Shown here piece by piece: positions 12,001-15,000 of a stretch of DNA of 64,000 nt. The DNA is from a virus (lineage: Duplodnaviria > Heunggongvirae > Uroviricota > Caudoviricetes). Position 1 is the first letter of the stretch. Each line of letters begins with the position of its first letter. Location of the stretch: the IMG/VR virus record IMGVR_UViG_2939521961_000004; one strand, written 5' to 3'. The position numbers were made by a program.

Positions 12001-15000
12001 AGCAGGATATGACAGAAACCGCCAGAGTTGTGTTTGATGAATTAAGCGTCACCGAACCGGCGACAGTCGGGGAGATTGCGCAGAATACTTACCTTTCACG
12101 CGAACGCTGCCAGTTAATACTGACCCAGCTTGTTATGGCGGGTCTGGCAGACTATCAGTGCGGTTGTTACAGACGCCTTCAGTCCTGAAGGCTTTTTTAT
12201 TTGTGGTAAATGGGCGGCTGGTGGGTGTTAGCGGCACCTGTCAGTCCTTTGCTTATGTGTTGATGATAATTTACCTTTTGGGGCTATAATTGAACTAACC
12301 AATTGCTAATGAAAGTAAAATTATAATGGTTGTTGTCTGTTCAGTTATCATGGTTTGCTCCCCAATTAATATTTTTCTTGAAAAGGATACGTTGTCACTT
12401 AAGCCCGGCTCAGTCGTTCTGGCCACCAAATGCATCAGGGCGCTTTTCCTTATGCATTATGGCAAAGTTAAAATTTTCGATATAAACCATTCCATAGTAA
12501 GTCAATATCTGGAAATTCAGCATAAGCTGACAAGAACTCATCTGACTGACGTTCCGCTTTATCTGTCACTGGAACCCAACAACCCTGCGTTGGCTGAGGC
12601 TTTAATTACCAGCCAGAGATTTTCCGGAGATACCACGGATATGTTTCTTATGATGGCATGCCTGTCGCTGTTTGAATCAGATGAACGGATATTATTATTT
12701 TTAAGTGGATGTTTATCCAGTATAAGTGCCAAAGTCAGGGCGATAATTCAGACAGATATATCAGCAAGCTGGACGCTTGGTGCGATTGCGTTACGCCTGC
12801 ATATGAGTGAGAGTTTGTTAAAGATAAAACTGAAAAATGAAGGGCACATGTTCAGTCGCTTGTTGCTGGAAGAGCGGATGCGTGTTGCTGTGAATATGTT
12901 ATGTTCCCGGCATGGATATGGACAGGCTGTAGCAGAAAAATGCGGTTATTCAAGCTGGTCCTACTTTATTTCTGTATTTCACCGCTATTATGGCTTCCCG
13001 CCAGACAGATATGTATCCAGGCAAGGGCTTGATTATTGATTTTCATCTGATTATTATTTTTTGACCCGGCCCTTTAGCTCAGTGGTGAGAGCGAGCGACT
13101 CATAATCGCCAGGTCGCTGGTTCAAATCCAGCAAGGGCCACCATCACATACCGCCATTAGCTCATCAGGAAAGAGCGCCAGCTTTCGAAGCTGGTTGCGC
13201 GGAGTTCGGGTCCCCGAAGGCGGTCCATTATCTGTATCCTGCGTTGTTAGCTCAGCCGGACAGAGCAATTGCCTTCTAAGCAATCGGTCACTGGTTCGAA
13301 TCCAGTACAACGCGCCACACTTATTTTCCCTGGCTCGCTTTTGCGGGCCTTTTTTTTAAATGTCTCACAATTCAGGCGGTTGACTGTTGTCTGGTTTGCG
13401 GGGAGTTTGTTAAAAGAAACTGGCATGGTGAATCCCCCTGTGCGGAGGGGCAATCAGCGAGTAGGTATATGGGATAATCGCGGATTCAGGTGCTGGTACT
13501 GAATTCACCGGGAGGCACCCGGCACCATGCAATGGCACATAGCGCCACTCTCCAGCCCCTCTCCGGAGGGGCTTTCTTATGGACAAAAAAAGCCCGCGCA
13601 GGGAGACGCGGGCGGCAAGGAATAAACAACAAAACGTGAAGTAATATTTCAGCTGGCGAATAATATCCGACAGTAATCACTCTGCGCAATAGCGCGGCCT
13701 TTTTCGTATTGCGGGCTGTTGTCTCTCTTCTGCCATTGTCCTGTAACTTCCGGACTTCAGCCCGCTCCTCATTTTACTCACAATATTATCCCGGCCGGGA
13801 GGATTCATGGCATTTAAACACTATGATGTTGTCAGGGCGGCGTCGCCGTCAGACCTTGCGGAAAAGCTGACACACAAACTGAAAGAGGGCTGGCAGCCAT
13901 ACGGCGGACCGGTTGCCATTACGCCGTACACACTGATGCAGGCGGTGGCTATTGAAGGAGATCCACAGGTCGGCCCTTCATCTGAGCCGGACTGGTTCTA
14001 CGTGGTTGTGCTTGCCGGACAGTCCAACGGCATGGCCTACGGTGAAGGGCTTCCGTTACCGGATTCTTACGATGCTCCGGATCCGCGCATTAAACAGCTG
14101 GCGCGCCGCAGCACGGTAACTCCGGGTGGAGAGAGTTGTACGTATAACGACATCATTCCGGCTGACCACTGCCTGCATGATGTGCAGGATATGAGTACGC
14201 TGAATCATCCGAAGGCAGACCTGAGCAAAGGGCAGTACGGCTGTGTCGGCCAGGGCTTACATATTGCCAAAAAACTGCTTCCGTATATCCCGAATAACGC
14301 GGGGATCCTGCTGGTACCATGCTGTCGTGGTGGTTCGGCATTTACCCAGGGCGCGGAGGGGACATTCAGTGCGGACACGGGGGCCAGCCAGGATTCGGCG
14401 CGCTGGGGTGTGGGTAAACCGTTATATCAGGACCTGATTGCGCGCACCAAAGCTGCATTACAGAAGAACCCGAAAAATGTGTTGCTGGCGGTGTGCTGGA
14501 TGCAGGGAGAGTTTGACATGAGCGCCGCCACCCACGCACAGCAACCTGCGCTGTTTACAGCCATGCTGACACAGTTTCGTGCTGACCTCTCCGTGTTTAA
14601 CGCGCAGTGCCATGGTGGCAGTGCTGCAGATGTGCCGTGGATTTGTGGTGACACGACGTATTACTGGAAAAATACATACGCTACCCAGTACGACACCGTG
14701 TACGGCGGGTATAAAAACAGGGAGAGTGAGGGCGTTTATTTTGTGCCCTTCATGACAGACGGTAACGGCGTCAATACCGCCACTAACGCGCCGGCAGAAG
14801 ATCCGGATATTCCGGCATCAGGATATTACGGTGCGGCATCGAGAACGAATGGAAACCAGGTATCATCAAACCGCCCGACACATTTCAGTTCATGGGCGCG
14901 CAGGAGCATTATTCCGGATCGTATGGCAACCGCTATTCTGAACGCAGCCGGGCGCACCTCAGCCTTCATCAGTGGTAAGGCACCGGAAATCAAACCCTCG

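Follow-up and report, generated by a model that had tools for sequence, protein, structure and literature searches.

Shiga toxin (Stx) phages 933W, VT2-Sakai, and H-19B contain a cluster of three transfer RNA (tRNA) genes, ileZ-argN-argO, which was reportedly described by Neely and Friedman in 1998 and by Plunkett et al. in 1999. The present analysis concerns the middle gene of this cluster, argN, as it occurs in virus record IMGVR_UViG_2939521961_000004. The stretch analyzed, referred to here as the window, is 64,000 nucleotides in length, and all coordinates are given on a scale in which position 1 is its first letter. It contains two lambdoid prophages, A and B, each with one copy of the trio, and aligns with O26-type Shiga-toxigenic E. 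coli chromosomes at 99.8-100% identity.

Sets of tRNA genes are also carried by the virulent phages T4 and T5, and pseudo-tRNAs occur in the cryptic prophages of E. coli K-12. The general idea that phage tRNAs supplement codon usage is cited in a paper on phage SfI (PMC3636060). Variants of the present cluster that are located beside stx2i and labeled tRNA-pseudo-tRNA-Arg have been mentioned in passing (PMC13641118). A literature search on ileZ, argN, and argO returned nothing relevant.

Judged by its sequence, the trio in the window is the textbook ileZ-argN-argO cluster of Stx and related lambdoid phages. It matches 289 phage records, many of which are annotated ileZ/argN/argO (argN is annotated in record AF125520.1, for example), and the argN query is 90.4% identical to the annotated argN of 933W. 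The gene order and the anticodons (CAU, UCG, and UCU) are the same as in the Stx phages, and so is the location, after Q and before the stx slot, nanS-p, and the lysis genes; no stx gene, however, follows either trio in the window. The trio resembles the T4 and T5 sets in being a compact, co-transcribed cluster with anticodons that match codons the phage over-uses relative to its host. It differs from them in being a module of three genes, one of them evidently dispensable, that belongs to temperate lambdoid phages and has a promoter-like site and a terminator of its own. The dispensable gene is argN, and its prophage A copy resembles the pseudo-tRNA-Arg beside stx2i and the pseudo-tRNAs of K-12, all of them being prophage tRNA-derived sequences with substitutions at structurally conserved positions. 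Unlike the pseudo-tRNAs, it is still above detection thresholds and carries no pseudogene flag from the Prokaryotic Genome Annotation Pipeline (PGAP).

Sequence of the Prophage A argN Gene

A preliminary description of the window had reported three irregularities in the prophage A argN, and all three can be read from the sequence. In the acceptor stem, A6 (13156) faces A67 (13218), leaving six of the seven pairs. In the T-stem, A52 (13203) faces C62 (13213), so that the five-base-pair stem is incompletely paired. The T-loop is TTCGGGT (13205-13211) and departs from the T54-T55-C56-R57-A58 pattern by a G58 at 13209; position 58 of tRNAs is almost always A, and the T-loop of clean argN alleles is TTCAAGT or TTCGAGT. 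The allele with these three irregularities and U32 is referred to here as A-type.

The remainder of the gene is regular. The D-arm, GCTC-ATCAGGAAA-GAGC, has a four-base-pair stem and contains G18G19. The anticodon loop is TTTCGAA, seven nucleotides in length, with U33 and a purine at position 37, and the terminal CCA is encoded at 13225-13227. Both argN copies in the window share the D-loop A14-T-C-A-G18-G19-A20-A-A21 and the anticodon TCG. The determinants of the E. coli arginyl-tRNA synthetase are A20, C35, and G or U36, and A20, C35, and G36 are present in both copies.

The prophage A and B copies of argN differ at 8 of 77 positions, while the ileZ copies are identical over 76 positions and the argO copies have 4 differences in 77 positions, two of the four being a compensatory T-stem pair. 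Compared with the 933W-type allele, the prophage A argN differs by G58, A52, A67, changes in the D-loop, and position 32. The prophage B argN was said to fold cleanly, and the sequence agrees, with 21 of 21 cloverleaf pairs present and a predicted T-stem probability of 0.95.

Model Scores and Predicted Folding

The prophage A argN scores 42.9 bits against the Rfam tRNA model RF00005, above the 29-bit gathering threshold. This is 15 bits under the prophage B allele and 27-30 bits under ileZ and argO. In every genome inspected, PGAP/RefSeq annotates the A-type argN as tRNA-Arg with no pseudogene flag. By the practice of calling a tRNA pseudogene where detectors fail to recognize a sequence or flag it as pseudo, the prophage A argN is not a pseudogene.

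The folding predicted by ViennaRNA is less favorable. The cloverleaf of the prophage A argN has a predicted free energy of -20.0 kcal/mol, 9 kcal/mol above the minimum free energy (MFE) structure at -29.0 kcal/mol. The predicted T-stem pair probability is approximately 0.01, compared with 0.94-0.95 for the prophage B allele and for an allele with only G58. In the MFE structure the T-arm is replaced by a competing hairpin (Table 1). The three A-type changes act in one direction in this model, with G58 and A67 lengthening the competing hairpin and A52 weakening the T-stem. From the sequence and the folding model we infer, with good support, that the prophage A argN is impaired; its loss of function is a deduction, because every detector still passes the gene.

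argN Alleles in Related Clusters

A scan of IMG/VR with an exact 32-mer of ileZ identified at least 120 loci. Together with the two window copies, 96 ileZ-x-argO clusters were obtained among the matches listed, and these form the basis of the class counts and of the nucleotide diversity (pi) values given below.

The middle gene of the 96 clusters can be sorted into seven classes. It is a structurally clean UCG tRNA in 36 clusters and A-type in 16. An aberrant T-loop is the only irregularity in 7, and other mismatches are present in 4. The anticodon arm has been swapped for an unrelated stem-loop in 26, deletions have shortened the gene in 6, and in a single cluster the anticodon has changed to UCU. 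Of the 96 clusters, 81 have a clean argO, as opposed to 36 with a clean middle gene (Fisher p = 3e-11).

The mean pi of argN is 0.188, that of the two spacers 0.163 and 0.200, and that of argO 0.043; for ileZ it is 0.004, calculated from the 5' part only, which is the part not fixed by the 32-mer search. The argN gene is thus as variable as the spacers around it. Where a tRNA pseudogene is recognized by faster evolution than its functional neighbors and by uncompensated stem changes, argN shows both. The 16 A-type loci have 6 segregating sites in argN (pi 0.018) and 2 each in ileZ and argO (pi 0.003). Several of the additional argN changes in this lineage (G50A, G10T, and CCA to TCA) disrupt more pairs or the CCA end.

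The scores against RF00005 descend by allele. Clean argN alleles score 58.4, 58.2, and 56.0 bits, the G58-only allele 54.0, the A67-only allele 53.0, and an allele with a GGCGGGT loop 45.3. The A-type alleles score 43.4 and 42.9 bits, and the A-type with G50A scores 37.5. The arm-replaced form and a 66-nucleotide form have no match at E<=1. For comparison, ileZ scores 72.5 bits and argO 66-70 bits. On these scores the argN alleles are a graded series from intact to undetectable, in which the A-type is an intermediate stage.

The most common degenerate form of the middle gene, that of the 26 arm-swapped clusters, still has its acceptor, D, and T stems (examples are L112, L079, L065, L101, and L129, the last from E. 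coli ECMA0423). Its anticodon arm is GACGAC-ACGATAACAGG-GTTGTT, a six-base-pair stem with an 11-nucleotide loop, and the T-loop has been reduced to GCGGGT. It is recognized by no tRNA detector.

A further homologue is found in clusters of the arrangement ileZ-X-Thr(UGU)-Gly(UCC) (L106, L060, and L119, as well as L124 and L127 from E. coli and Shigella flexneri). Gene X is a clear argN homologue that shares the acceptor, D, and T arms of argN and has an A:C pair in the T-stem. Its anticodon arm differs and has the loop CCTTTAA. ARAGORN calls this gene Lys(UUU) although position 33 is C, and its Rfam score is 44.4 bits.

Distribution of the A-type Allele

The 306-nucleotide trio of prophage A is present at 99% identity or higher in 577 complete-genome records and at 100% in dozens of independently finished genomes. 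With a 97-nucleotide argN query, 559 of 5,426 complete E. coli genomes match at 99% identity or higher, and 300 more match at 95-99%. The A-type allele, with zero or one base difference, is accordingly carried by about 560-860 of the 5,426 genomes. Carriers belong to several phylogroups and include O157:H7 (EC4115), O26, O111, and the uropathogen UTI89. The mismatches could in principle be sequencing or assembly errors in the window; the trio's complete identity in dozens of independently finished genomes, with the near-identical argN in 559, rules out a misreading for all practical purposes.

In UTI89 the copy (L132) is preceded by a DNA methyltransferase gene and a different Q antiterminator. 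Over its length from ileZ to the terminator, this module differs from that of prophage A by one base in the tRNAs and spacers (argN has C32, not U32) and by one base in the terminator hairpin. The -10 box, the spacing, and a TTGCAG -35 box are kept, and the terminator site is equivalent, while the upstream gene is unrelated.

The preliminary description had attributed the irregularities to decay of one copy of a duplicated trio. The degeneracy itself stands, given the score of 42.9 as opposed to 58.2 bits and the predicted misfolding. A duplicate decaying within this genome does not. Because the A-type is widespread in E. coli and is found in UTI89 behind different upstream genes, the sequences indicate that prophages A and B carry different pre-existing alleles of the lambdoid phage pool and are not a decaying duplicate pair.

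The A-type argN was found in none of 284 phage records with an argN homologue, among which the best identity was 91.8% (blastn, 97-nucleotide query), and a megablast search of the phage collection with the same query gave no match. This absence is weak evidence because those records are mostly from Stx phages.

Two contigs from metagenome-assembled genomes (MAGs), L130 (labeled "uncultured Collinsella sp.") and L125 (labeled "Proteobacteria bacterium"), contain the exact ileZ together with argN and argO of the E. coli prophage type, and the argN of L130 is A-type. The trio on these contigs is probably a binning contaminant.

Interpretation of the A-type Allele

The explanation judged most probable is that the A-type argN is a strongly weakened or dead tRNA under relaxed selection, carried between two conserved tRNAs. 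It is probably an ordinary case of gene decay and opens no new biological question. The operon would supply decoders of the rare codons AUA, CGA/CGG, and AGA/AGG, the CAU anticodon of ileZ being read as isoleucine after lysidine modification and so decoding AUA. Strong purifying selection would act on ileZ and argO, and selection on argN would be relaxed throughout the phage pool. The widespread A allele would have gained three cloverleaf-damaging substitutions, G58, A52, and A67, by which a non-tRNA hairpin would come to be favored over the T-arm. It would persist because the compact mobile module hems it in between two genes that are under selection. As to the cause, we infer that selection on argN is relaxed, likely because the host tRNA-Arg(ICG) and tRNA-Arg(CCG), together with the argN copies of co-resident prophages, already read CGA and CGG. 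The host reads these two codons with its own tRNA-Arg species, and a clean argN is located 49 kb away in the same window. Codon usage in prophage A is 9.1 (ATA), 6.0 (AGA), and 4.8 (AGG) per 1000 codons, some two to four times the average for E. coli. With ileZ and argO near constant and argN drifting like a spacer, the module appears to be selected for the decoding of AUA and AGA/AGG, not of CGA/CGG.

Decay is opposed by several observations, many of which would be expected if the A-type were instead a working tRNA-Arg(UCG), unusual but tolerated, whose cloverleaf is stabilized in the cell by tertiary interactions, modifications, and bound proteins. This alternative is considered possible, though doubtful. 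ARAGORN, Rfam, and PGAP all accept the gene as a tRNA; the D-arm, G18G19, A20, U33, C35, G36, purine 37, and CCA are all intact; and the clean argN alleles themselves score only 56-58 bits. Neither tertiary contacts nor base modifications are represented in the folding model. Some real tRNAs tolerate a single A:C or A:A mismatch, and the conserved ileZ has a fixed A27:C43 at the top of its anticodon stem in nearly every one of the 96 copies, those of the window included, as gene X has its A:C pair in the T-stem. Per 1000 codons, prophage A contains 14.1 CGG and 4.9 CGA, a more than trivial demand for a UCG decoder. The allele is also nearly invariant in approximately 860 genomes (among them O157:H7, O26, O111, and UTI89) and has moved between phage backgrounds, which fits hitchhiking but also a working gene. 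As for the comparative evidence, the IMG/VR sample is partly clonal and was ascertained through the exact ileZ 32-mer, the excess variation within the A-type lineage is drawn from only 10 sites, and the 8 loci obtained in a scan of species-representative genomes are not enough to estimate the rate independently; the ileZ ascertainment does not bear on the comparison of argN with argO. What tells against a working tRNA is that the A-type has three defects at once, including the loss of A58, with a predicted T-stem probability of approximately 0.01 and a score 15 bits under the clean allele. More pair-breaking changes segregate within its lineage, and the locus decays to undetectable forms in many phages.

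Another candidate explanation, which appears improbable, is that the middle element is retained for a non-decoding function, either as a processing signal for RNase P or RNase E that frees ileZ and argO, or as a decoy for anticodon nucleases. Under such a role, and with equally low plausibility, the A-type would be an adaptive remodelling to a minihelix made of five base pairs each of acceptor stem and hairpin. If true, this would explain why approximately 16% of the complete E. coli genomes, and different phage backgrounds, carry the allele nearly unchanged. All three substitutions favor the predicted UUCGG/CCGAA hairpin, stacked on a five-base-pair acceptor stem; three substitutions can coincide by chance, however, and the hairpin is without covariation support. 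Among 31 grossly altered middle elements, 28 keep the 7/7 acceptor stem and 24 keep the 5/5 T-stem, and a clean deletion of the element between ileZ and argO is almost never seen. This retention of stems can be put down to recent clonal origin, as 14 copies are identical and the altered elements are mostly near-copies of one event.

It was also considered whether argN is decaying along with a defective prophage A. This was rejected, as the tape-measure gene of prophage A is intact and the A-type occurs in other phage backgrounds. It is prophage B, with the clean argN, and not prophage A, that has an integrase split by an insertion sequence (IS) element.

What is new with respect to the described clusters is that the A-type argN is an intermediate in a graded decay, is very common, and is annotated as a normal tRNA. 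Because it is labeled an ordinary tRNA-Arg by RefSeq in hundreds of genomes of pathogenic E. coli, the CGA- and CGG-decoding capacity of enterohaemorrhagic E. coli (EHEC) may be lower than counts of "extra" rare-codon tRNAs suggest. The cluster is also a neat case, on a small scale, of selection acting unequally on the three genes of a mobile tRNA module.

Organization of the tRNA Operons

ARAGORN identified six tRNA genes in the window, and these form two trios of the same arrangement (CAU, UCG, UCU; ileZ-argN-argO), at 13068-13317 and 62392-62643. The presence of the trio in both prophages, as well as its location between a regulator and nanS-p, had been noted in the preliminary description and is confirmed here; in both prophages an AraC-family gene is located on the 5' side and nanS-p on the 3' side. 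Each trio is in the late region of its lambdoid prophage, downstream of Q and upstream of STnc100, nanS-p (a SASA esterase gene), and the lysis genes. The tRNA genes within a trio are 7-13 nucleotides apart, and the spacers on either side of the prophage A argN are 7 and 13 nucleotides in length. The features are listed in Table 1.

Table 1. Coordinates of the tRNA genes, their putative expression signals, and associated features in the window.
Feature	Position	Strand	Evidence
Q antiterminator gene, prophage A	10363..10734		Pfam Phage_antitermQ
AraC-family helix-turn-helix (HTH) regulator gene, prophage A, directly 5' of trio	12326..13039	+	Pfam HTH_18, HTH_AraC
Promoter-like site TTGATT-17-TATTAT, prophage A, ends 10 nucleotides 5' of ileZ	13029..13057	+	Consensus match only
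ileZ, tRNA-Ile2 (anticodon CAU), prophage A	13068..13143	+	ARAGORN Met/Ile2(CAT); Rfam tRNA 72.5 bits; PGAP tRNA-Ile
argN, tRNA-Arg(UCG), A-type allele (A6:A67, A52:C62, G58, U32), prophage A	13151..13227	+	ARAGORN; Rfam 42.9 bits; PGAP tRNA-Arg
Predicted competing hairpin UUCGG (13205-13209; positions 54-58)/CCGAA (13214-13218; positions 63-67), loop GUCC, in place of T-arm	13205..13218	+	ViennaRNA MFE, pair probabilities 0.47-0.83
argO, tRNA-Arg(UCU), prophage A	13241..13317	+	ARAGORN; Rfam 70.1 bits
Intrinsic-terminator-like hairpin GGCTCGC-TTTT-GCGGGCC followed by T8, after prophage A argO	13332..13357	+	Sequence match
AraC-family HTH regulator gene, prophage B counterpart	61650..62363		Pfam
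Promoter-like site TTGATT-17-TATTAT, prophage B	62353..62381	+	Consensus match only
ileZ, prophage B	62392..62467	+	ARAGORN; Rfam 72.5 bits
argN, tRNA-Arg(UCG), structurally clean, prophage B	62477..62553	+	ARAGORN; Rfam 58.2 bits; 21/21 pairs; T-loop TTCAAGT
argO, prophage B	62567..62643	+	ARAGORN; Rfam 68.9 bits
Intrinsic-terminator-like hairpin and T-run after prophage B trio	62656..62681	+	Sequence match

In prophage A, the 3' end of the AraC-family gene overlaps the promoter-like site. Because a promoter-like site and a GC-rich hairpin with a T-run flank both trios, each trio looks like a self-contained operon. This layout suggests that expression of the tRNA operon in the lysogen might not depend on Q.

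Other Features of the Two Prophages

Homologues of the small RNA (sRNA) STnc100 are located just downstream of each trio on the + strand, at 13394-13584 (138 bits) and 63413-63585 (104.7 bits), as identified with Rfam. This position after the trio is where Stx phages carry stx. Related loci contain two or three tandem copies of STnc100, and in some of them the anti-sRNA AgvB adjoins (L034, L066, L009, and L095). The trio and STnc100 of prophage B are separated by two small genes at 62814-63410 (TerB family and DUF3927, following the annotation of strain E2865), and prophage A has none at this place.

The prophage B integrase is encoded on the minus strand at 42889-45221 and is split by an IS3-family element containing an ALIL frameshift pseudoknot (Rfam, 43872-43988). 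The intact tape-measure gene of prophage A extends from 30187 to 32799 on the + strand and encodes 870 amino acids. In the near-identical strain PV0838 (L122, 29739-30329), this gene is present as two fragments owing to a deletion of approximately 2.47 kb. Two additional RNAs were identified with Rfam. A sok antitoxin RNA is located next to hokD in prophage A (8168-8342, + strand), and the sRNA DicF is located next to dicB/ydfC in prophage B (48602-48653, - strand).

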